This document shows, piece by piece, positions 825-36,082 of a stretch of 64,000 bases of DNA. Each line of letters opens with the position of its first letter. The stretch's first letter is position 1. This stretch comes from a virus (lineage: Duplodnaviria > Caudoviricetes), in IMG/VR virus record IMGVR_UViG_3300032237_000764, positions 32,168-96,167 of that record. One strand, 5' to 3'. The translations under genes were made by a program, and so were the position numbers. Under the pieces are notes generated by a model. The model saw nothing but the letters and a program-made list of their open reading frames with translations, ran no database searches and was not told the origin of the DNA.

Positions 825-2126
825 ATGAATAATCGAAAAGAATTGATACAAACATTTATTAATCAAATTAAAGAACAACAATTTGTTCCAGAGTTCTGTC
901 ACAACCTAAAACAATCAAAAAATAAAGTTTATTATTCAGGACCATCATTTACTGACGATGAGTTAATAGAAGCAATTGATTCATTGCTTTTTGGTAAATG
1001 GTTTAGTAGTGGAGAAAAGGTATATCGATTTGAAAGCGAATTTAGTAAGACTATTAATCAAAAATATTCTGTGATGGTAAACTCGGGAAGTTCTGCGAAT
1101 TTAGTATTGATTGCCGCATTAAAAAAATACTTTAATTGGCAAGACAATGATGAAGTTTTAATTTCTGTCGTTGGATTTCCAACTACATTAAATCCATTAA
1201 TCCAAAACAATCTAAAAGCAATATTTGTTGATATTGAATTTGATACTTTAAATTTTAATTTGACTCAGTTGGAAAGCAAAATTACATCAAAAACCAAAGC
1301 AATTTTTATTTCTCCCGTATTAGGAAATCCTCCTGATCTGGATCGTATCATTGAAATTGCCAATAAATATAAGTTAAAAATTGTTTTAGATGGATGCGAT
1401 AGTTATGGCAGTAGATGGAATAGTAAGCATTTGGCCGAATATGCAATTGCTTCCAGTTGCAGTTTTTATCCTGCGCATCACATCACCACTGGTGAAGGTG
1501 GTATGGTAAGTTCAAATATTGAAGAAATTGTCAAACTTGCTAGAACTTTTAGTTGGTGGGGACGTGATTGTTATTGTGTTGGCCCAGCAAATTTATTGAA
1601 AAATGGAAGTTGTAATTGTCGTTTCAGTAATTGGTTGAAAGATGTACCGTATGAAATTGATCATAAATATCTCTTTACCCAAATCGGATACAATTTAAAA
1701 CCACTTGATTTGCAAGGTGGTATTGGACTGGCTCAATTAAAGAAGGCTGAATCATTTCATGAAGCACGGCGTGTTAATAAAGAAAAAATTCAGTCGATTC
1801 TATCGAATATAAAAACTTTAAAATTTCCAAGTCAAGATCAACGTGCCGAAGTTTCTTGGTTTGGTGTACCGATTATTTGCAGAACATATGTCGAAAAATC
1901 AAATTTTGTAAATTATTTGGAAATCAATGGAATTCAAACTCGCAATTATTTTGCTGGTAACATTCTATTACATCCTGCATATCGTCATTTGGAAGATTGG
2001 AAAAACTATCCAAATGCAAATAGTGTGTTAGAAAAGGTTTTCTTTATTGGATGTGCTCCTACAATCACCGAAGATAATATTAAATATATTCAAGAAGTTA
2101 TTGAAAAATACAAATATGAAAATTGA
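825..2126 (+). CDS. rfbH: CDP-4-keto-6-deoxyglucose 3-dehydrase (RfbH/DdhC, DegT family)
   Basis: VNSGSSAN; SFYPAHHITTGEGG has His at the PLP-Lys position; WGRDCYC Cys motif. Confidence 0.88.
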   Translation: MNNRKELIQTFINQIKEQQFVPEFCHNLKQSKNKVYYSGPSFTDDELIEAIDSLLFGKWFSSGEKVYRFESEFSKTINQKYSVMVNSGSSANLVLIAALKKYFNWQDNDEVLISVVGFPTTLNPLIQNNLKAIFVDIEFDTLNFNLTQLESKITSKTKAIFISPVLGNPPDLDRIIEIANKYKLKIVLDGCDSYGSRWNSKHLAEYAIASSCSFYPAHHITTGEGGMVSSNIEEIVKLARTFSWWGRDCYCVGPANLLKNGSCNCRFSNWLKDVPYEIDHKYLFTQIGYNLKPLDLQGGIGLAQLKKAESFHEARRVNKEKIQSILSNIKTLKFPSQDQRAEVSWFGVPIICRTYVEKSNFVNYLEINGIQTRNYFAGNILLHPAYRHLEDWKNYPNANSVLEKVFFIGCAPTITEDNIKYIQEVIEKYKYEN

Positions 2127-2931
2127 TTTATTTGGTGGCACCGGGTTCATAGGCAGTAATTTTAAACGATTATATGATAGTGAATCTCATATTCATCATC
2201 GTGAAAATGACTATCCATTAGAAGAAAACGTGTTGTATATGATTAGCACAACACACAACTATAATGTATTTAGCGATTTACATAAAGACGTTGATACCAA
2301 TTTAACCAAACTGTTAAAGGTATTAGCTAAATGTAAAGATAAAAATATCACATTTAACTTTGTAAGTAGTTGGTTTGTTTATGGAGAATGTGCATTACCT
2401 GCATCCGAATCGGATTGCTGTAAACCAAAAGGATTTTATAGTATTACAAAAAAATGTGCTGAAGATTTATTAATTAGTTATTGTGAAACATTTAATATTA
2501 AATATAGAATCTTGCGTCTTTGTAATGTTTATGGAAAAACTGACGATGGCGTGTCCAAGCAAAAGAATGCGTTGCAATATTTAATAAATGAACTTAAATT
2601 AAATCGAGATATTAAATTATATTATAATGGTAATTTTATTAGAGATTATATGCATGTTGATGATATTTGTCGTGCAATTCATCTATGTATCACTAAAGCT
2701 GATACAAATCAGATCATTAATATTGGCAGCGGTATACCTCAGCGATTTAGAGACGTGATTGATTTTGTTATATGCGAAACAAAATCAACTAGCAATATTA
2801 TTCCTGTTGATGCCGTAGAATTCCATAAACTTGTCCAAGTCAAAGATATGTATTTAAATACAGAAAAACTAACTCAATTAGGGTTTAAACAAGAAATTAA
2901 TATTTATACCGGTATAAAACAATTGTTATGA
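2116..2931 (+). CDS. NAD-dependent epimerase/dehydratase (extended SDR)
   Basis: GGTGFIG directly after ATG 2116; YSITK; RDYMHVDD. Confidence 0.85.
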   Translation: MKIDLFGGTGFIGSNFKRLYDSESHIHHRENDYPLEENVLYMISTTHNYNVFSDLHKDVDTNLTKLLKVLAKCKDKNITFNFVSSWFVYGECALPASESDCCKPKGFYSITKKCAEDLLISYCETFNIKYRILRLCNVYGKTDDGVSKQKNALQYLINELKLNRDIKLYYNGNFIRDYMHVDDICRAIHLCITKADTNQIINIGSGIPQRFRDVIDFVICETKSTSNIIPVDAVEFHKLVQVKDMYLNTEKLTQLGFKQEINIYTGIKQLL

Positions 2932-3893
2932 TTAATATATTAGTTACAGGTGGATGTGGATTTATAGGTTCTCATTTTGTTGAAGAACTGTTAAAAAGTT
3001 CAAACATTGGATGTATTGTCAATATTGATAAAATGACATATGCAGCAAATAAAACATTACCGTTTCAATCGAATGAACATTATTTTTATCATAAAATGAA
3101 TATAAATTCTTCATGCATATTAGAAATTTTAAAAGAAAAAAACATCAATTATATTGTTCATTTTGCGGCTGAAAGTCATGTAGACAACAGTATTGCAGAC
3201 AGTGATCCGTTTATTAAAACTAATATTAATGGAACACACAGTTTGTTAAAAACTTCATTAAATTATATTAATAAAGGTGGCAATTTAATTAAATTTATAC
3301 ACGTATCCACTGATGAAGTGTATGGTAGTTTAAATTTTGATGATATACCTTTTACAGTTAATAGTCCATATCGTCCTAACAGTCCTTATGCAGCGAGCAA
3401 GGCTGCAAGTGATTTGCTGGTTCGTAGTTATGTTCATACACATAAATTTCCAGCCATTATTACCAATTGTAGCAATAACTTTGGTCCTCGTCAATTTTCT
3501 GAAAAGCTAATACCACTCTGTATTAAAAAATTAAAAAATAAACAATCGATACCCTTATATGGTAATGGAAAAAACATTCGCGATTGGATATACGTAAAAG
3601 ATCATGTAAATGCATTGATACAAGTATTATTGAACGGTAAAGTCGGTAGTCAGTATTTAATCGGTGGCGATAAAGAAATTTCTAATTATGAGTTAGTTCA
3701 TATTTTAGGATATGAATATACCAATCTTACCTTTACTAATATTGATTGGCCACTGTTTAACTTTGTAGAAGATCGTAAAGGACACGATTTGCGTTATGCA
3801 ATTGATACAGTAGAATTTAAAAAAGAGTTTCCTGATTGGAAACTCTCTTGCTTTTATGATAGTATCAAAAACACAGTAAAAAGCTATATTTAA
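2928..3893 (+). CDS. rfbB: dTDP-glucose 4,6-dehydratase
   Basis: GGCGFIG, HFAAESHVD, STDEVYG, PYAASK, DRKGHDLRY. Confidence 0.93.
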   Translation: MINILVTGGCGFIGSHFVEELLKSSNIGCIVNIDKMTYAANKTLPFQSNEHYFYHKMNINSSCILEILKEKNINYIVHFAAESHVDNSIADSDPFIKTNINGTHSLLKTSLNYINKGGNLIKFIHVSTDEVYGSLNFDDIPFTVNSPYRPNSPYAASKAASDLLVRSYVHTHKFPAIITNCSNNFGPRQFSEKLIPLCIKKLKNKQSIPLYGNGKNIRDWIYVKDHVNALIQVLLNGKVGSQYLIGGDKEISNYELVHILGYEYTNLTFTNIDWPLFNFVEDRKGHDLRYAIDTVEFKKEFPDWKLSCFYDSIKNTVKSYI

Positions 3894-5041
3894 TTTTTAA
3901 CTATTATTAAATTTTTTTCGTATGTTTTTAAAGATTTAATTGTAAATTTAAATATATCAAATTCCATATTTCCAATTTCTCCAGAATCTTTTAAAATTTT
4001 AGAAAGATTATAAATAATTTGTATATTATTATTATTCAACATATTTCCGTCAAATTCAATTAATATATTATTTATCTTTTCATCATTTAAAGTTTTTACT
4101 CTGTTTTTTAAATTAAACGACGTGAGGTGTTGATTATTATTAATATAATTTTTAATATCACAATCTACATATATATTTGAACACCAGTATTCTAATATAT
4201 TCAATAGCTGCGGATTACAATTATTAATAATTAATCCGATATCATACTTTGAATTTATGATAGGATAGCTGTATTCATCATTTTCTATCCAAGATCCCCA
4301 TTTTCTAATATAATTTTTATAATTTTTATCACAACATTTTTTATAAAAATCATCATCTTTTTGTATTTTTTCTGTCCATCGATGTCCTCTACATGTCAAG
4401 TGATATACAAATGAATCTCGACTTTGAATTATATTATAATCATTTAAAATAAATCTTTGAAATATATCACTGTCTTCATATGGAAATGGCGCAAACATTA
4501 AATCATGACCGCCAATTTCAATAAAGTCTTTTTTATACATAACCCAAGGTGCAAAAATTCCTTTGGTTGTAGTGTCGCATGACGATTTTTGTTCTGATAT
4601 ACAAAAGTCTTCAAATTCTTGTATTTTTAAATCATCATGCTCCAATCCAAAATTTTTAATAATTTTTTCTTTTCCGGCAGGATGTAAAGGGGGTTCTATA
4701 CGAGTAGCAGAAACCACAGTTTTATCTTTTAGATGTTTCAATAAATTTTCTACATAATATGGACCGCATATCATATCTGCATGAAATATTGAAAAAATAT
4801 CATGCTTACACATTTCAACTCCAATGTTATATAAAACTGTGTGTCCCACCGAACCGTTTTTATTAAAATATTTTGTCAAATTATTGTCTGACAGGTTACT
4901 TAACCAATCTACAGTACCGTCGGTTGAACAGTCATCTAAAACTATAATTTCATGACTTTTATAATATTTTCTGATACTAGTATATGCATTTTTTAAATAT
5001 TTTATATTATTTTTAGATGGTATTATAAAACTGATATTCAT
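3890..5041 (-). CDS. Glycosyltransferase family 2
   Basis: ISFIIP, LDDCSTDGT, HADM, EDSD. Confidence 0.85.
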   Translation of the reverse strand: MNISFIIPSKNNIKYLKNAYTSIRKYYKSHEIIVLDDCSTDGTVDWLSNLSDNNLTKYFNKNGSVGHTVLYNIGVEMCKHDIFSIFHADMICGPYYVENLLKHLKDKTVVSATRIEPPLHPAGKEKIIKNFGLEHDDLKIQEFEDFCISEQKSSCDTTTKGIFAPWVMYKKDFIEIGGHDLMFAPFPYEDSDIFQRFILNDYNIIQSRDSFVYHLTCRGHRWTEKIQKDDDFYKKCCDKNYKNYIRKWGSWIENDEYSYPIINSKYDIGLIINNCNPQLLNILEYWCSNIYVDCDIKNYINNNQHLTSFNLKNRVKTLNDEKINNILIEFDGNMLNNNNIQIIYNLSKILKDSGEIGNMEFDIFKFTIKSLKTYEKNLIIVKN

Positions 5042-5045
5042 AATT

Positions 5046-5900
5046 TTATTTTGGCAAACATAATAAATTTACAAGTTCTCCCGAAATAGTGTCATTTATA
5101 CTATTTATTTTTTTCATTTTATTTGGATTTCCAAAACCAGAATTGTCGCGCCCTATGTCATAGATATCATAATTGATCGAATGTATCGTATGCAGGAGAT
5201 CATTTACTTCTGAGGGTGTAGAGCCTGAATAAAGTTCCGCCATTAAAATTGGTTTAACTGTGTTAATAATTGAATATATAGTTTTAATTATTTCTTTATC
5301 ATGACCTTCCGCATCAATTTTAATTAATTTAATATTTGAAATATCATCTTTATGATTTTCATTTAAGAAATTATTTAAATTAACAGCGTATACATCTATT
5401 GGTTTGACATGTCCGGTTACACCCACTCCTTTTTCACATCCTAATGCAAACCCACCATTACAAAGACCATCATCGGAATAATGAAATTCTAAAACTTCAT
5501 TATTATGTGAACATGCTAAGTTATACGGTACAATATTTTTGTAAATTTCACCATTTTTATTTAAAATTTCAAATGCTGCTGGATTTGGTTCAAATGATAT
5601 AACTTTTCCTGCAAATTTTGCAAATGCCACTGATAATATCCCCGCTTGCGCACCTATATCTAATACTACACTATTTTTTAATAGTGTTTGATTTAAATAA
5701 TCTAAAATGTTATTGGTAAACATTTCGGTATATTCCCAATCTCCTTGATATGGATGCGTCCATTTATAATAATCAATATTATATTTATTGTTTGGTGTAG
5801 AATATGTTACTAGTTTCGGCTCATAACGATTTTTATTTTTAGATAAAATATCTAAAAATTCTTTTCTATATTCATCTGTATGTTCTATTATTTTATTCAT
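5046..5900 (-). CDS. FkbM-family methyltransferase
   Basis: VLDIGAQAG, SFEPNP, IKIDAEG. Confidence 0.88.
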   Translation of the reverse strand: MNKIIEHTDEYRKEFLDILSKNKNRYEPKLVTYSTPNNKYNIDYYKWTHPYQGDWEYTEMFTNNILDYLNQTLLKNSVVLDIGAQAGILSVAFAKFAGKVISFEPNPAAFEILNKNGEIYKNIVPYNLACSHNNEVLEFHYSDDGLCNGGFALGCEKGVGVTGHVKPIDVYAVNLNNFLNENHKDDISNIKLIKIDAEGHDKEIIKTIYSIINTVKPILMAELYSGSTPSEVNDLLHTIHSINYDIYDIGRDNSGFGNPNKMKKINSINDTISGELVNLLCLPK

Positions 5901-29993: not shown

Positions 29994-30764
29994 ATGATTA
30001 AATCTACATTAGAATCAATGATTAAGAAGTATTATCTTGCAAATTTTATGGAAACTTCAATTTGGAAGGTATTAAATGACAAAAAGCAACTACGAATGGC
30101 AGCATGTACTCCAAATTATGTACTGAGTGTAGTAGTTGAACTGAATAACTTTGAAGAAATTCCAACAACCGAGTTTGCGGTAAATGATACCACCAAGTTA
30201 TTGAAGATGTTGAATGCATTGGATGCGGACATCAAATTGTCCGTCAAACAAGACAACAACGGCAAAATTTACAATATTGTAGTAAATTCTGGTAATATTG
30301 AGATGGAATATGTAACCGCTGATATTAATGTATTGCGAGCAAATGAAGTGGTAAAGACCATCAAGAAGGTTAATGAACCTCCGTTTGAAGTAGAAATCGT
30401 GCTTGATAGAGACTTTATTGACACTTATATTGCTAGTACAACTGCATTGTCCGATAGCGAGAATGTAGTGTTTCAAATGAACAAGGATAATAAACTTGAA
30501 ATGGTATTCGGTCATATTCAAGGTGCAAACAAGTCATTAAACACTTCAAAAATCAAATATTTGCCTAAAACCACAAATGATAAAGATACACTTCCATCAT
30601 CACTTGGTTTTAGTTCTGAATATTTGAAGCAAATTTTGGTAGCAAATAAAGATGCTGCCGATACAATTCTCAAATTGGGTGTTACTAAGCCTATGGCAAC
30701 TATTCAATTTACAAGCGGCGACATTGTTGCAACCTATCACGTAACCGGTCTAGCTGTTAAATAA
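29994..30764 (+). CDS. DNA polymerase sliding clamp (gp45-like)
   Basis: 256 aa, between polymerase and clamp loader; EFAVNDTTKLLKML and FSSEYLKQIL clamp-like segments. Confidence 0.72.
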   Translation: MIKSTLESMIKKYYLANFMETSIWKVLNDKKQLRMAACTPNYVLSVVVELNNFEEIPTTEFAVNDTTKLLKMLNALDADIKLSVKQDNNGKIYNIVVNSGNIEMEYVTADINVLRANEVVKTIKKVNEPPFEVEIVLDRDFIDTYIASTTALSDSENVVFQMNKDNKLEMVFGHIQGANKSLNTSKIKYLPKTTNDKDTLPSSLGFSSEYLKQILVANKDAADTILKLGVTKPMATIQFTSGDIVATYHVTGLAVK

Positions 30765-30767
30765 TAT

Positions 30768-31400
30768 ATGACTACACAAGAACATCATACTATCTGGCCC
30801 GAGAAATATCGTCCTTCATCTTTGGATGAATATGTAAGTAATCCAAATTTGATTGCTACAATTCGTAAATTCATTGATTCAAAAAATATTCCGCATCTAT
30901 TGTTTTATGGAACTGCGGGAACTGGCAAGACAACCTTGGCTAAGTTAATTATTAAGAATGTTGATTGTGATGCAATGTATATCAATGCGTCTGACGAAAA
31001 TAACGTTGATAATGTTCGTACAAAAATCAAAGATTTTGCATCAAATGTCGGTTTTTCTGAATTGAAGATCGTGATTTTGGATGAATGTCTTGATGAAAAT
31101 ACACTTATTTACGTTCTCAGGAATGGAGAAGAAATCATGATTTCTATAAAAGAAGCAGACGAAAAAAACGATTTGGTCAAATCATATAACACCCAACACA
31201 GTAAAATTGAATGGCGTCCTTTTTATTTATGGGATAAAGGAGAGCAAGAATGTCTGAGAATTGAATTGGAAAATGGAGAGGTGGTTGTTTGTACGCATGA
31301 TCATAAATGGTATGTATACGATGAAAATAATAAACCCTTTAAAGTAAAGGCGTCTGAACTGCTCTCTGGAAAATATGATTATATTCTTTCACCAGAATAA
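30768..31400 (+). CDS. Clamp loader ATPase (gp44/RFC-small) N-extein fused to split-intein N-fragment
   Basis: WPEKYRP, GTAGTGKT, INASD, IVILDE, then CLDENT..CTHDHKW and a stop. Confidence 0.92.
   Translation: MTTQEHHTIWPEKYRPSSLDEYVSNPNLIATIRKFIDSKNIPHLLFYGTAGTGKTTLAKLIIKNVDCDAMYINASDENNVDNVRTKIKDFASNVGFSELKIVILDECLDENTLIYVLRNGEEIMISIKEADEKNDLVKSYNTQHSKIEWRPFYLWDKGEQECLRIELENGEVVVCTHDHKWYVYDENNKPFKVKASELLSGKYDYILSPE
31086..31397 (+). mobile_element. Split intein N-fragment (104 aa)
   Basis: Block A CLDENTLI and block B CTHDH (TxxH); no block F or G before the stop. Confidence 0.9.
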
Positions 31401-31419
31401 AAATATTTGTAACATTAAA

Positions 31420-32395
31420 AAATGCTGCAATTAAAAATAAATTGGGAAGTTATAAAATATATGATAGAAAATCATTTTCTTGTGAGGAAATTGATCAACT
31501 ATTTAAAAAATATAACACCCTGCCAAAATTTTCCGACATATTCGATATGAATAATATTCATTCAGATTTAAGAAAATAGAAAAATTCAATTGTCAGAAAA
31601 ATGGATGATAATTCATGTAATTATTTTTTCTTTCTGATGGAAGACAATATTCCAAAATGAAAATATTGTAATATAAAATTAAAAATAGATGAATACAAAT
31701 ATAATAGGAAGCCCAGATTTCTTTTGTATTGTAAACCATGTGTAGAAGAAGGAAATTATAGACGATATAAACATTCTATTGAAAGTATAAAAAAATTTAA
31801 AATTTCCAAGAAAAAATGGAATAATACAAAAAAAGGAAAAGAATTTTATAAATTGCAGGGAAAAAATAATAGCAGGAAACTCAAAAAATTTTTCAAAACA
31901 GATGCAGGAAAAATTCAAATTCAGATAAATGCAAAAAAAGCTTCTGATAAACTTAGAGAAAAAATAAAAAATGGAACTTTTTCACCATGTATAACAAATA
32001 GATGGACACGTTGGAACGCGGTTGTTACAATAAACAACAAAACATATAAGTTTAGAAGTTCATGGGAAGCAAGTTTTTATGTAAGTAATAATTATCTAGA
32101 ATACGAAACAATTAGAATACCTTATATAAATAATCAAAACAAAAAAAAAGATATACATTGGAGATTTTTATGATAGACAAAGAAACATATTATATGAAAT
32201 TAAACCACGCTCGATTTTTCGAAAAGAAGCCAAAAAATAAATCAAGCAATAGCATATTGTATACAAAACAATATAAAATTTGTTTGGATAAATGAAAAAA
32301 ATATATTAAATTATGTAAATAAAGAAGATTTCTCAAAAGAAAATATAAAACAATATGAAAAAATGATACATGGGATTCAAAATGAAAAAAATTAA
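31420..32395 (+). pseudogene. Decayed PD-(D/E)xK (TnsA-like) endonuclease between the intein halves; 5' end approximate
   Basis: IPK*KYC nonsense codon, FRSSWEASF..YETIRIPY, frameshift at A9 into IYIGDFYD..YEIKP, then a second shift into FVWINEK. Confidence 0.7.
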
Positions 32396-32501
32396 AATAA
32401 TTAAAATTGAAAAGTTGACTGAAAAAAAACAAGTATATGATTTATCAGTTGAAGGAAATCATAACTTTTTTATAGGAAAATCTAAAACACTTACGTCAAA
32501 T
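32382..32501 (+). mobile_element. Split intein C-fragment (40 aa)
   Basis: Block F VYDLSV..NHNF, block G ending Ser-Asn, +1 Cys. Confidence 0.9.
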
Positions 32502-33110
32502 TGTGATTACATGACTCATAATGCACAGGCGGCATTACGTAACATTATGGAGACGTATGCATTGACTACACGATTCATTCTAACCTGTAACTATATTGAA
32601 AAGATTAGTGAGCCGCTGTATTCGCGTTGTCAGTGCTTTGAAATCAGTCCCTTGCAAAAGAAAGACGTAGCAATTCATTTAAAAAACGTTCTTCATGCAG
32701 AAAATGTTAAACACACTATGGATGATTTGGGTTATATTGTTAACACTTATTATCCTGACATTCGCAAAGTGTTAAATTTTGCACAACAAAGTGTATTAAA
32801 TGGAGAAATTAAAATCGCAGAGTTAAATTCTTCATCGTATAATACAAAAAATCAACTAATTGAACTATTGAAGTCTGAAACGAGTGCAACAACTGGCTTC
32901 CATAAGATTCGACAGTTGATTGCTGACAGCGGCGTTCGTCATTATGAAGAATTGTATCAAACTCTATTTGATCGTGTTGATGATTATGCACCAAAACAGC
33001 AGTCGGCAGCGATTTTGGTTGTGGCAGAGTATTTGTATCAAAGCAGCATGGTTGTAAACAAAGAAATTGTTTTTATGGCTTGTATTGCCAAACTATTAGA
33101 AATGCTATGA
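32382..33110 (+). CDS. Split-intein C-fragment fused to clamp loader C-extein (alternative start 32370)
   Basis: VYDLSVEGNHNFF..LTSN/CDYMTHNAQAALR, FILTCNY, SRC motif. Confidence 0.92.
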   Translation: MKKIKIIKIEKLTEKKQVYDLSVEGNHNFFIGKSKTLTSNCDYMTHNAQAALRNIMETYALTTRFILTCNYIEKISEPLYSRCQCFEISPLQKKDVAIHLKNVLHAENVKHTMDDLGYIVNTYYPDIRKVLNFAQQSVLNGEIKIAELNSSSYNTKNQLIELLKSETSATTGFHKIRQLIADSGVRHYEELYQTLFDRVDDYAPKQQSAAILVVAEYLYQSSMVVNKEIVFMACIAKLLEML

Positions 33111-33304
33111 AAATAGATAAAAACATAAAAACTCATTCAGTCACATTTTTCCAAATATGTTTGGTTTGATAGTGCATACGCTACCACATATAAAAATGAA
33201 TATGTAATTGTTGTAAAATCATATCCTTATAGCGATGATCACGTATTCAATGAATATGAAAAAAACAACAAAGTTAGAATTAGAACACACGTATTAGGAG
33301 GAAA

Positions 33305-33844
33305 ATGAATATTTTAAATAAAACCAAGGTTTATCTTGCGGGCAATTTAGAAAACGCAAAGACCAGCACCAATACATGGAGAGATCATGTTAAAAACGAA
33401 CTAAAGTCATTGAACATAACGTTTCTGTCGCCATTGGAGCATATGTTTACAGATGATATGCCAGAAGATGAAAGCAATCAACTTACAGTAAAAACACTAC
33501 GTGCCAACGCTGAATTTGATGCTGTGCATAAGCACATGAAAAAGATTGTTCGCAAAGATTTACGTCTGGTCGATATATCTGATTTTTTTATCTTTAACTT
33601 TGATATAAAAACACCCACCTATGGTACAATGCACGAACTTGTATTGGCAAGCCAGCAACGCAAACCTGTTTTTATTAGCGTAGGCGATAAACGTCAATGC
33701 CCTCTGTGGATAATGGGATTGTTTAGTCATAAATATATTTATAACAATGTAGAAGAAATAGTTGACGTATTGAAACGAATTGATAGTGGTGAAATTGAAA
33801 TTAATAACAGTCGTTGGAAATTGTTAAAGTCTGAATTTCGATAA
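33305..33844 (+). CDS. Nucleoside 2-deoxyribosyltransferase-like protein
   Basis: VYLAG..WR..DLRLVDISD..GTMHELVLA. Confidence 0.75.
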   Translation: MNILNKTKVYLAGNLENAKTSTNTWRDHVKNELKSLNITFLSPLEHMFTDDMPEDESNQLTVKTLRANAEFDAVHKHMKKIVRKDLRLVDISDFFIFNFDIKTPTYGTMHELVLASQQRKPVFISVGDKRQCPLWIMGLFSHKYIYNNVEEIVDVLKRIDSGEIEINNSRWKLLKSEFR

Positions 33845-33896: not shown

Positions 33897-36082
33897 ATGA
33901 ATAATTCTTCTAAGTTTGATTTGTTACCGTTATATGTAGATAATATTACTAATAGAAAAGTTGTATACATTGGACCAGACGGTTCAAGTGGTTATGCATG
34001 CGCTGCTAAGGGGTACATTTACGAACTAATTCGCACAAATGTACCCGTTAAATTTCTTTCATATACAATACCAAATCAACAGATTGATATTGACAATACT
34101 CCATTTTCTTTTTTAATCAATAAAAAAAAAATATTGTATTGGACAATCCAACTGAAATTGTTGTTCATGCAATTCCAGAAGGATGGGACATTTTAATAAA
34201 AAATTCTCAGATAAATTATACATCAGATACAAAATTAATTGGGCGTACTGTTTGGGAATTTGATAAATTACCCCAACAATGGGTTAACATTATTAACAAT
34301 AGTATTGTGAATGTAGTCAGTGTTCCGACAGAATGGAACAAAAATACATTTATTAATAGTGGAGTAACAAAGCCTATTGTTGTAGAACCACATGTTTATA
34401 TTGATTATCCACATACCCCATTAGTATTGCAACACATACTGAGTAGATGTGTATTAGTAAATAAACAATTAAAAGAAACAAATTTTAACAAACATTATAA
34501 ATTTTACAATATATCACAATTGATAGATCGTAAAGGTATCGATTTATTGGTAGAATCATTTTGTGAAGCGTTTGATTCAAATGATAACGTTTCATTGTTT
34601 CTTAAATTGTATCGTACTAATCATAGTCTTGTAGAACAAGCTGAAACGGCTAGATATATAAAATCAATCGTTGATAAATATCAAAACGCACCTTTGATTT
34701 TTCTTATAAAAGATTTCTTAACCTATGATGAAATAAAAACATTACATTCTTTATGTGATTGTTATGTGAGTTTGACAAAAACTGAAGGATTTTGTTTGGG
34801 AGCATTTGATGCATTTCAATCTAAAAAAAACGTAATTATAACTGGATATGGTGGACAACTCGAATATTTACAAAAAGACTATGATGGTCTAATACCTTAT
34901 ACATTAAGCTCGGTAAATTCGGAAATTTATAAGGGTTGTTATCTTGACGAATCATATAAATGGGCAATAGCTGACAAAAAAAGAGCGATTGATTTGATGC
35001 AAAAAAGATACAGAGGGGTCAAATCAAAAGTAATCACTGTAAAAAAGAACGATTTATCTATATTGTATGTTGGTCAATATGGCACAAGTGGTTATGCAAC
35101 TGCGGCAAAACAATATGTTGCTGATTTTGTAATGCGTAATATTCCTGTTCGCTGGGAGCCACTTTATTTTGATAAAACTAAACTAGATAATAATAATTAC
35201 GTTAATATTCTTGCAAAATCTGCAATTAATAAAAAAATTGACAGTTATAATACAGTTATTTTGCATTGTACTCCTGACTTATGGCCACAATATCTCGAAA
35301 AACATAAAGATACTTTGATTGGCAAAAAAATAATTGGATATACTGTTTGGGAAACTAACAGATTAAAACCTGAATGGGTAACTTATATCAATCAAGTTTC
35401 GGAAGTATGGTGTCCTTCTTCACATAACAAAGAGGTTTTTGAAAAAAGTGAAGTTACTATACCAGTAAAGGTTGTTCCACATCTATTTTTTAGAAATGAA
35501 TTACCAGAAAAATCAAATATATCTGTTCGTGGAGCAATCGATGGATATTATACATTCTACAATATTAGCGAGTATAACGAACGTAAAAATATCAAAGAAT
35601 TGTTAGAAACATATTGTCAAACATTTACGTCTGAAGATCGTGTTCAATTGATTTTAAAAACACATTATAAAGATTATTTAACCGACAATATTGTATATTG
35701 CAAACAAGAAATTGATAAAATTTTAAATAAATATCCAAACCACGCCCATATAGTTGTAATATATGATAATTTGGATGAATACGATCTATTAAAATTACAT
35801 TCATATGGTGATTGTTATATTACTCTCACTAGAAGTGAAGGCTTTGGATTAACAATTTTTGATGCATATAATTATGGAAAACAAATTATAGCAACGGGAT
35901 ATAGTGGATATATTGATTTTCTAGGATCAGATTATCCGGGGCTTGTAAAATACAATCTAATAAATGTAACTGGTATGGATACATTTAATAAAAATTATCA
36001 ACATGAAAATCAAATGTGGGCACAGCCAGATCTTGAACATACTAGTCAATTAATGAAAAATAATTATTTAAATAACATATGA
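33897..36082 (+). CDS. Tandem double GT-B glycosyltransferase with a -1 frameshift at an A10 run (34122-34131)
   Basis: Two homologous halves (YIGPDGSSGY / YVGQYGTSGY; TVWE; RK; EGF). ORF 33897-34196 supplies the N-terminus missing from ORF 34139-36082. Confidence 0.8.

Follow-up and report, generated by a model that had tools for sequence, protein, structure and literature searches.

Fractured genes were described in 2009 by Dassa, London, Stoddard, Schueler-Furman and Pietrokovski at loci for gp41-1 to gp41-9, NrdA, NrdJ-1, IMPDH-1, DnaE, DNA ligase and terminase; the survey counted eight host types, one of them an unknown protein, and the nucleases involved were GIY-YIG or Vsr-like (PMC2677866). 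Here we describe a locus of this kind in a phage gene for a gp44/RFC-type clamp-loader ATPase. The gene lies in the window, by which we mean the whole stretch of 64,000 nucleotides (nt) that was analysed (positions 32,168 to 96,167 of IMG/VR record IMGVR_UViG_3300032237_000764). Sequence comparison indicates that it is very probably a fractured gene, in which a split intein occupies the break, a decayed free-standing endonuclease gene separates the two intein halves and the protein is completed by trans-splicing.

Much of the architecture is shared with the 2009 fractured genes. In both, the intein is split at the usual site of endonuclease insertion, the upstream gene half stops right after the N-terminal intein half (IntN), and the downstream gene half has its own start before the C-terminal intein half (IntC). 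IntN is acidic and IntC basic in both, and the 3' end of the endonuclease gene overlaps the start of the downstream half. The published gp41-7 locus, which has no endonuclease, has a counterpart among the relatives of the window in locus L022. The differences are that none of the eight published host types is a clamp loader, that the endonuclease appears to be TnsA-like, and that the full-length endonuclease gene of the window is in mid-decay, intermediate between the intact and the deleted genes of the published loci. The locus follows a known fractured-gene design and involves no new principle, while its host protein and nuclease type were in no paper that we found.

Inteins in clamp loaders have been reported: several occur in archaeal RFC, and that of cyanobacterial DnaX directly follows Walker B (PMC4760082). 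A preliminary description of this locus had called the host protein unusual. That holds for the split form in a phage clamp loader, which we found in no paper, but not for clamp-loader inteins as such; our literature search for split inteins of clamp loaders, RFC or gp44 returned nothing specific, with most subscription journals outside its coverage. The DnaX inteins (Pol III gamma/tau) have in common with the window an AAA+ clamp-loader host and insertion immediately after Walker B. Unlike the window's intein, they are contiguous and cis-splicing, reside in a cellular host and have no free-standing endonuclease described. The Spl DnaX mini-intein (PDB 7cfv) was the best solved match to a contiguous relative of the window's intein, P0251 (E 9e-8). 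Its similarity to the window's halves was weak (IntC E 0.29), and the two are likened here by insertion site.

The halves of the split DnaE intein are complementary in charge. The cyanobacterial Ssp and Npu DnaE inteins are also comparable to the window's intein in fragment size, with IntC chains of 36-37 amino acids (aa; PDB 4lx3_B, 4qfq_B), and they matched its sequences at E 1e-3 for IntN and E 0.025-0.04 for IntC. In contrast to the window, the DnaE halves are encoded at separate loci without an endonuclease, and the host protein and insertion site are different.

Clamp-loader exteins and intein halves

The upstream open reading frame (ORF), ORF1 (30768-31400), encodes 210 aa, of which the first 106 form an extein ending in KIVILDE and the remainder form IntN, running from CLDENT to ILSPE before a TAA stop. 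The N-extein matched the PHROG family phrog_168, annotated as clamp loader of DNA polymerase, over ORF1 residues 2-107 (E 1.2e-34), and the C-extein in the downstream reading frame, ORF2, matched positions 109-307 of the same profile (E 3e-34). When joined, the exteins comprise 308 codons and align without a gap to uninterrupted 308-aa genes (L004, L134 and L135). The upstream splice junction would be ILDE/CLDENT, with Cys1 straight after the N-extein.

Both intein halves have the expected splicing motifs. Block B of IntN reads CTHDHKW and includes the Thr-x-x-His motif; its C, T and HKW are conserved in at least 90% of the family. Among all columns conserved at that level across 120 family members, IntN retains every residue with the exception of a single V-to-I change. 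The block F Asp and His of IntC are present (VYDLSVEGNHNFF), and IntC ends in TLTSN followed by CDYMTHNAQAALR, such that the terminal Asn precedes a +1 Cys and is itself preceded by Ser instead of His. With 21 acidic and 13 basic residues, IntN has a net charge of -8; IntC, with nine Lys and four acidic residues, has one of +5. The two halves fell on complementary parts of the Pfam model PF14890 (Intein_splicing), IntN on positions 3-90 (E 5e-6) and IntC on positions 122-148 (E 7.6e-6). Matches to IntC in the PDB were the gp41-1 intein and Npu DnaE IntC, and comparisons of the window's halves with the DnaE, gp41-1 and KlbA inteins gave weak matches. The preliminary description had reported the break after ILDE, intein halves of 104 and 40 aa, these charge counts and a rejoined ATPase of about 308 aa; our recomputation reproduced its coordinates, lengths and motifs, and its charge counts were exact.

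The downstream half has two candidate starts, ATG 32370 and ATG 32382. The second is favored because homologues start there and because the motif GGGA lies 6 nt upstream of it. This purine-rich motif was also present 5' of the IntC start in L010 and in L011/L012. The gap between the halves measures 981 nt; no terminator-like site was found between them, and promoter-like sites occurred at chance-level frequency.

We propose that an ancestral class-1 mini-intein was situated directly after Walker B of the clamp-loader ATPase. A free-standing TnsA-like homing-endonuclease gene would have invaded the usual endonuclease-insertion loop of this intein and broken it in two, with the insert providing the upstream half with its stop codon and the downstream half with a start codon and ribosome-binding site. 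A single transcript would then yield both halves, and the acidic IntN would associate with the basic IntC. Splicing would proceed by an acyl shift at Cys1, transfer to Cys+1 and cyclisation of the terminal Asn, with Ser before the Asn in the place of His. The outcome would be a 308-aa clamp loader reading ILDE-CDYM across the junction, plus free intein.

The halves could in principle be joined before a protein is made, by a group I or group II intron, or during translation by ribosomal bypass or readthrough across the gap. In favor of such joining, ORF1 and ORF2 happen to be in the same reading frame in the window. However, the frame they have in common holds many stops, and the frame relation is random across relatives, with seven of 19 loci sharing a frame as judged from coordinates. 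In addition, no Rfam intron family matched positions 30700-33200 at E values up to 1, and the intein blocks flank the break exactly. We consider joining at the RNA or translation level to be exceedingly improbable.

Table 1. Components of the interrupted clamp-loader locus, in window coordinates.
Feature	Position	Strand	Basis
N-extein, 106 aa	30768..31085	+	Walker A GTAGTGKT; Walker B ..VILDE; phrog_168
IntN, 104 aa	31086..31400	+	Cys1; block B CTHDH; end ..YILSPE; TAA 31398-31400; PF14890
Decayed free-standing endonuclease gene, apparently TnsA-like PD-(D/E)xK	31382..32395	+	Three-frame translation; colinearity with homologues
GGGA, Shine-Dalgarno-like, 6 nt 5' of the IntC start, within the endonuclease 3' end	32372..32375	+	
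IntC, 40 aa	32382..32501	+	Block F VYDLSVEGNHNFF; block G TLTSN; PF14890
C-extein, 202 aa plus stop	32502..33110	+	Begins at the +1 Cys, CDYMTHNAQAALRN...; phrog_168

The endonuclease gene between the halves

The gap contains the remnant of an endonuclease gene, across which the GC content falls to 21-25%. The remnant can be read in frame 2 (31382-32146), then frame 0 (32148-32237), then frame 2 again (32231-32395), and in this reading it aligns colinearly over its whole length with intact homologues of 275-297 aa found between the same intein halves elsewhere. Its final frame ends at 32393-32395 and so overlaps the IntC start. There is no ATG at the homologous start position, and two nonsense codons interrupt the first segment, TAG 31577-31579 and TGA 31658-31660, which correspond to Trp and Cys, respectively, in L010. 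Frameshifts at an A9 run (32141-32149) and an A6 run (32232-32237) bracket the catalytic region GDFYD...YEIKP. The motifs SSWE, GDFYD and YEIKP are all retained but are spread over different frames. A 149-aa ORF within the remnant matched phrog_15427, annotated as endonuclease (E 2.3e-10). The endonuclease gene of the window is decayed and non-functional, as the preliminary description had claimed.

An alternative genetic code was considered as the source of the nonsense codons and rejected, because one recoding could not account for both TAG at a Trp and TGA at a Cys of L010, and table 11 leaves the other genes open. Hairpins 5' of the endonuclease gene, of the type noted by Dassa et al., were inconsistent across loci; only L128 stood out (z -3.2), with the window at z -1.25.

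Both frameshifts in the insert are in A-runs, and another apparent frameshift in the window is at an A10 run. This raises the question of whether the locus is a product of faulty sequencing or assembly and is really an unbroken gene whose intein is contiguous and includes an endonuclease domain in frame. The stop of ORF1, the start of ORF2 and the two nonsense codons are, however, not homopolymer effects, and the intact endonuclease ORF of relatives has a start and a stop codon of its own and bears no fixed frame relation to the intein halves. Letter-identical copies of the ORF1 and ORF2 products were found on two contigs, of which the longer measures 313,799 bp (sources listed: JGI/IMG, Logan and ENA). 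Moreover, 13 of the 18 homopolymer runs in the window (A/T of at least 8, G/C of at least 6) are inside intact long ORFs. An artefact of this kind is highly improbable.

The identity of the endonuclease was assessed from its intact homologues, which match PHROG 15427. The homologue at L041, which is free-standing, matched PF08722 (TnsA-like endonuclease N-terminal) with E 2.9e-9 and 37.8 bits, relative to a cut-off of 26.5. SSWE, D-F-x-D and E-x-K-P are invariant in 17 intact members, as are the catalytic E...D...E-x-K positions E187, D218, E229 and K231. The fully aligned members L012, L005 and L041 also have four N-terminal CxxC motifs. An AlphaFold2 model of the endonuclease (pLDDT, the predicted local distance difference test score, 86.7) was most similar by VIA-align to Tn7 TnsA (1t0f; Z 7.6, root-mean-square deviation 3.3 over 119 residues), followed lower down by Vsr (1cw0, Z 5.4) and I-Bth0305I (3r3p, Z 5.0); no Z score reached 8. 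Foldseek agreed weakly with TnsA (probability 0.89-0.92, E 0.13-0.21) and found nothing in the PDB at E ≤ 0.001. No Pfam Vsr match was found in the endonuclease.

These profile and model comparisons support, with moderate confidence, the assignment of the endonuclease as a PD-(D/E)xK enzyme of the TnsA type, and it probably falls outside the GIY-YIG and Vsr-like families of the published fractured genes. It would share with Tn7 TnsA the PD-(D/E)xK core with its E...D...E-x-K residues. In contrast to TnsA, it includes a long helical linker and an N-terminal region with the four CxxC motifs, and it lacks the rest of TnsA.

Relatives of the locus and the history of the element

A family search with ORF1 as the query identified at least 120 clusters of N-fragments, and the figures that follow refer to the matches listed. 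The N-fragments are 183-289 aa in length (nearly all 202-227) and have 51-69% identity to ORF1. Cys1, the junction LDE/CL(D/E) and the same split point were present in all 120 clusters listed. IntN, measured in 115 of the 120, has 100-105 aa and mostly ends in ILSP(x) at the stop. About 40 C-fragments (225-252 aa) have the same start position and an IntC of 39-43 aa that ends in HN or SN before CD, about 25 with His and 14 with Ser. The recurrence of the junction and split point in at least 120 clusters supports the earlier claim that a phage clamp loader here contains a split intein of fractured-gene type.

Among IMG/VR loci with the endonuclease family, about 36 of 48 have the order N-extein, IntN, intact endonuclease ORF (247-342 aa), IntC and C-extein. 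At about nine further IMG/VR loci (L041:3866-5606, L108, L110, L112, L114-L116, L119 and L127) the endonuclease gene is free-standing, directly 5' of an uninterrupted clamp-loader gene; in L041 the 3' end of the endonuclease gene runs into the clamp-loader start. In total, 46 of the 48 loci with this nuclease family are at the clamp-loader gene and only two are elsewhere, which indicates that the family is specialised on this gene and suggests that the clamp-loader gene is its homing target.

In other relatives the endonuclease gene is deleted or frameshifted. In L022 (4325-5582) only 61 nt separate the halves, and this spacer encodes PQLDKLKTGIK, a C-terminal remnant of the endonuclease, which indicates that the endonuclease was deleted after the gene was fractured. 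L010 has a frameshifted endonuclease, and its cassette was the most similar to that of the window among the loci compared. With relatives carrying the endonuclease intact, frameshifted or deleted, and with their intein halves under purifying selection (below), the fractured-gene reading of the preliminary description was upheld.

Contiguous mini-inteins occupy the same site in P0248, P0251, P0255, P0256, P0266, P0285 and P0287, which are proteins of 450-462 aa, and could be either ancestral forms or re-fusions. In these proteins a linker of a few residues joins the end of IntN (SP) to the residues at which IntC starts, and P0251 has a Met at that position.

The penultimate Ser, which the preliminary description had regarded as unusual, proved not to be so. 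About a third of the family has Ser, and the split DnaE intein splices without a penultimate His (Sun et al. 2005, cited in PMC4031507). These observations bear on the possibility that the two halves of the clamp loader reassemble without a peptide bond, the intein segments acting solely as dimerisation modules of high affinity, in which the penultimate Ser slows or blocks Asn cyclisation. A precedent is available from the fragmented ribonucleotide reductase gene nrdA, split by an endonuclease gene, whose product is rebuilt through interaction domains without splicing (PMC3045599), and the penultimate His assists the Asn step (PMC4031507). Against this, the window retains Cys1 and Cys+1, Thr and His of block B, Asp and His of block F and the terminal Asn, together with the columns conserved in at least 90% of the family. 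Furthermore, Ser occurs in P0248, a contiguous intein that must splice in cis, and in alleles with intact, presumably mobile endonucleases (L123, L126 and L128). The break is also inside the AAA+ core, straight after the Walker B strand. We believe that non-covalent reassembly is unlikely and that trans-splicing better describes the locus.

The clamp-loader gene alone displays nearly all stages of the gene-breaking model of Dassa et al. These are an intein-less gene, a gene with an adjacent free-standing endonuclease, a gene with a contiguous mini-intein, a fractured gene with a live, homing endonuclease, one with a dying endonuclease (the window), one with the endonuclease deleted, and a gene in three pieces. 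The window would represent the stage at which the selfish nuclease has been lost and the host has been left dependent on protein trans-splicing. The pairs of His and Ser forms, and of contiguous and split forms, are ready-made comparisons.

The three-piece gene is in L010 (positions 1157-5702 of IMGVR_UViG_3300044957_000346). Its first piece is a 90-aa protein that ends in GTGK/C followed by a 28-aa IntN at the P-loop, after which there are two small ORFs. The second piece (289 aa) consists of an IntC of about 131 aa ending in CHN/TT, for which the Pfam match was weak (E 0.0017), a 51-aa extein and the Walker-B IntN. An FkbM-like methyltransferase gene (PF05050) and the frameshifted endonuclease gene come next, and the third piece is composed of IntC and the C-extein. 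The arrangement recurs, as P0241, P0245 and P0246 are homologues of the middle piece. From these sequences the Walker-B intein of L010, P0241, P0245 and P0246 appears to work in the same polypeptide as a second intein, at the P-loop, that is atypically split and has an IntN of about 28 aa. If this is true, the two inteins are necessarily orthogonal in nature, and one enzyme is produced from three gene products.

Four of the five split inteins rated exceptionally fast in a benchmark, gp41-1, gp41-8, NrdJ-1 and IMPDH-1, come from fractured phage genes (PMC7090010). As fractured-gene split inteins can be fast, a new family that is divergent in sequence is a reasonable source of orthogonal ligation tools. 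We offer only as a tentative suggestion, about which we have some doubt, that the Walker-B clamp-loader inteins may form a large natural family of fast split inteins still to be exploited, perhaps orthogonal to the characterised tools and paired in relatives with a P-loop intein. A blastn search of GenBank phages (50,697 records) with the locus returned a single match, of 163 nt at 70%, and tblastn with IntN against GenBank phages returned only an unrelated ribonucleotide reductase region, indicating that no deposited phage of the collection searched carries the element.

Ratios of non-synonymous to synonymous substitution (dN/dS) between related fractured loci were 0.07-0.13 for IntN, 0.04-0.15 for IntC and 0.14-0.31 for the endonuclease, which indicates that the intein halves of these related loci are under purifying selection; for the window's own halves the corresponding support is at the protein level. 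The comparison of L095 with L096 was informative about mobility. Only seven of 1341 nt differ within the cassette. On either side of the insertion the extein sequences agree completely over about 30 nt, beyond which they diverge, with 43 differences over the 597-nt C-extein. The near-identical cassette with its short identical flanks is a signature of homing with short co-conversion tracts, and the cassette is, as judged from these sequences, much younger than its hosts.

The closest relatives of the window's exteins, L004, L134, L135 and P0001, are intein-less, have 92-98% aa identity and read ILDEADYLTHNSQ. The N-extein has 97-98% aa identity to the uninterrupted L134 and L135 genes, and the C-extein 92-95% to uninterrupted homologues. 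At the nucleotide level the identity of the exteins to intact homologues is 87-89%, compared to 92-98% in protein, from which it follows that the changes are mostly synonymous. Mismatches between the window and its intein-less sisters are clustered at the junction (10 of 30 nt versus a background of 12%, p 0.002), and no such cluster was found when the intein-less genes were compared with each other. The changed junction residues, the Met and Ala of CDYMTHNAQ, match those of intein-bearing alleles. A sister N-fragment with 92% identity, P0411, is also split and differs at seven of 104 residues in IntN and 10 of 106 in the extein. A metagenome scan seeded with P0411 returned relatives that were all intein-less.

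Because the nearest extein relatives are intein-less, we propose that the cassette came into the lineage of the window by homing. With the endonuclease decayed the element would now be immobile, and the split intein would be retained because the only clamp-loader gene seen depends on it. It is plausible that the split is now fixed in the phage of the window.

Several points weigh against our interpretation of the locus as a trans-spliced fractured gene. The argument for splicing activity is one from conservation. The PF14890 scores of the individual halves (26.8 and 26.2 bits) are below the gathering threshold of 35.8, whereas the contiguous relative P0251 scored above it (39.2 bits, model positions 11-155). 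The frameshift at A9 in the endonuclease remnant could be a miscount of run length, as the A10 run also marks an apparent frameshift; the two nonsense codons are substitutions and are untouched by this caveat. Finally, the completeness of the 96-kb record was estimated by CheckV as about 27%. No second clamp-loader copy was found in a search of that record, and another clamp-loader gene may be present beyond it.

The incompleteness of the record, of which only about a quarter of the genome is represented, is also consistent with a scenario in which the clamp loader was inactivated by the insertion and is a dying gene, its function being provided by another phage copy or by the host, and the endonuclease between the halves is clearly decaying. 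Yet both halves are intact ORFs, IntN retains the family-conserved columns, the extein changes are mostly synonymous, and the sister allele P0411 has no excess of change in IntN. The gene has also kept its position within a block of polB, putative clamp and clamp loader. We consider it very unlikely that this is a dying gene.

Source phage and neighboring genes

The source phage is large, uncultured and derived from a lake. The polymerase gene in the polB, putative clamp and clamp-loader block encodes a full-length phage family-B enzyme (phrog_262, E 1e-168), which supports a phage origin. In the position expected for a sliding clamp, between polB and the clamp loader, there is a 256-aa ORF (29994-30764) with a counterpart of 245 aa in L010. 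This ORF had no significant Pfam match and a weak match to a PHROG of unknown function (E 0.0023).

Further downstream, a glycosyltransferase-like gene (33897-36082) has an apparent change of frame at the A10 run (34122-34131), the longest homopolymer in the window. The 99-aa ORF at its start (33897-34196) is similar to the beginning of the second module in the 647-aa ORF that follows (34139-36082). The change of frame may reflect a miscount of the run in sequencing, a genuine frameshift or programmed slippage. Directly 3' of the clamp loader, a gene at 33305-33844 resembles nucleoside 2-deoxyribosyltransferases (PF15891, E 3e-11; PF05014, E 9e-10).

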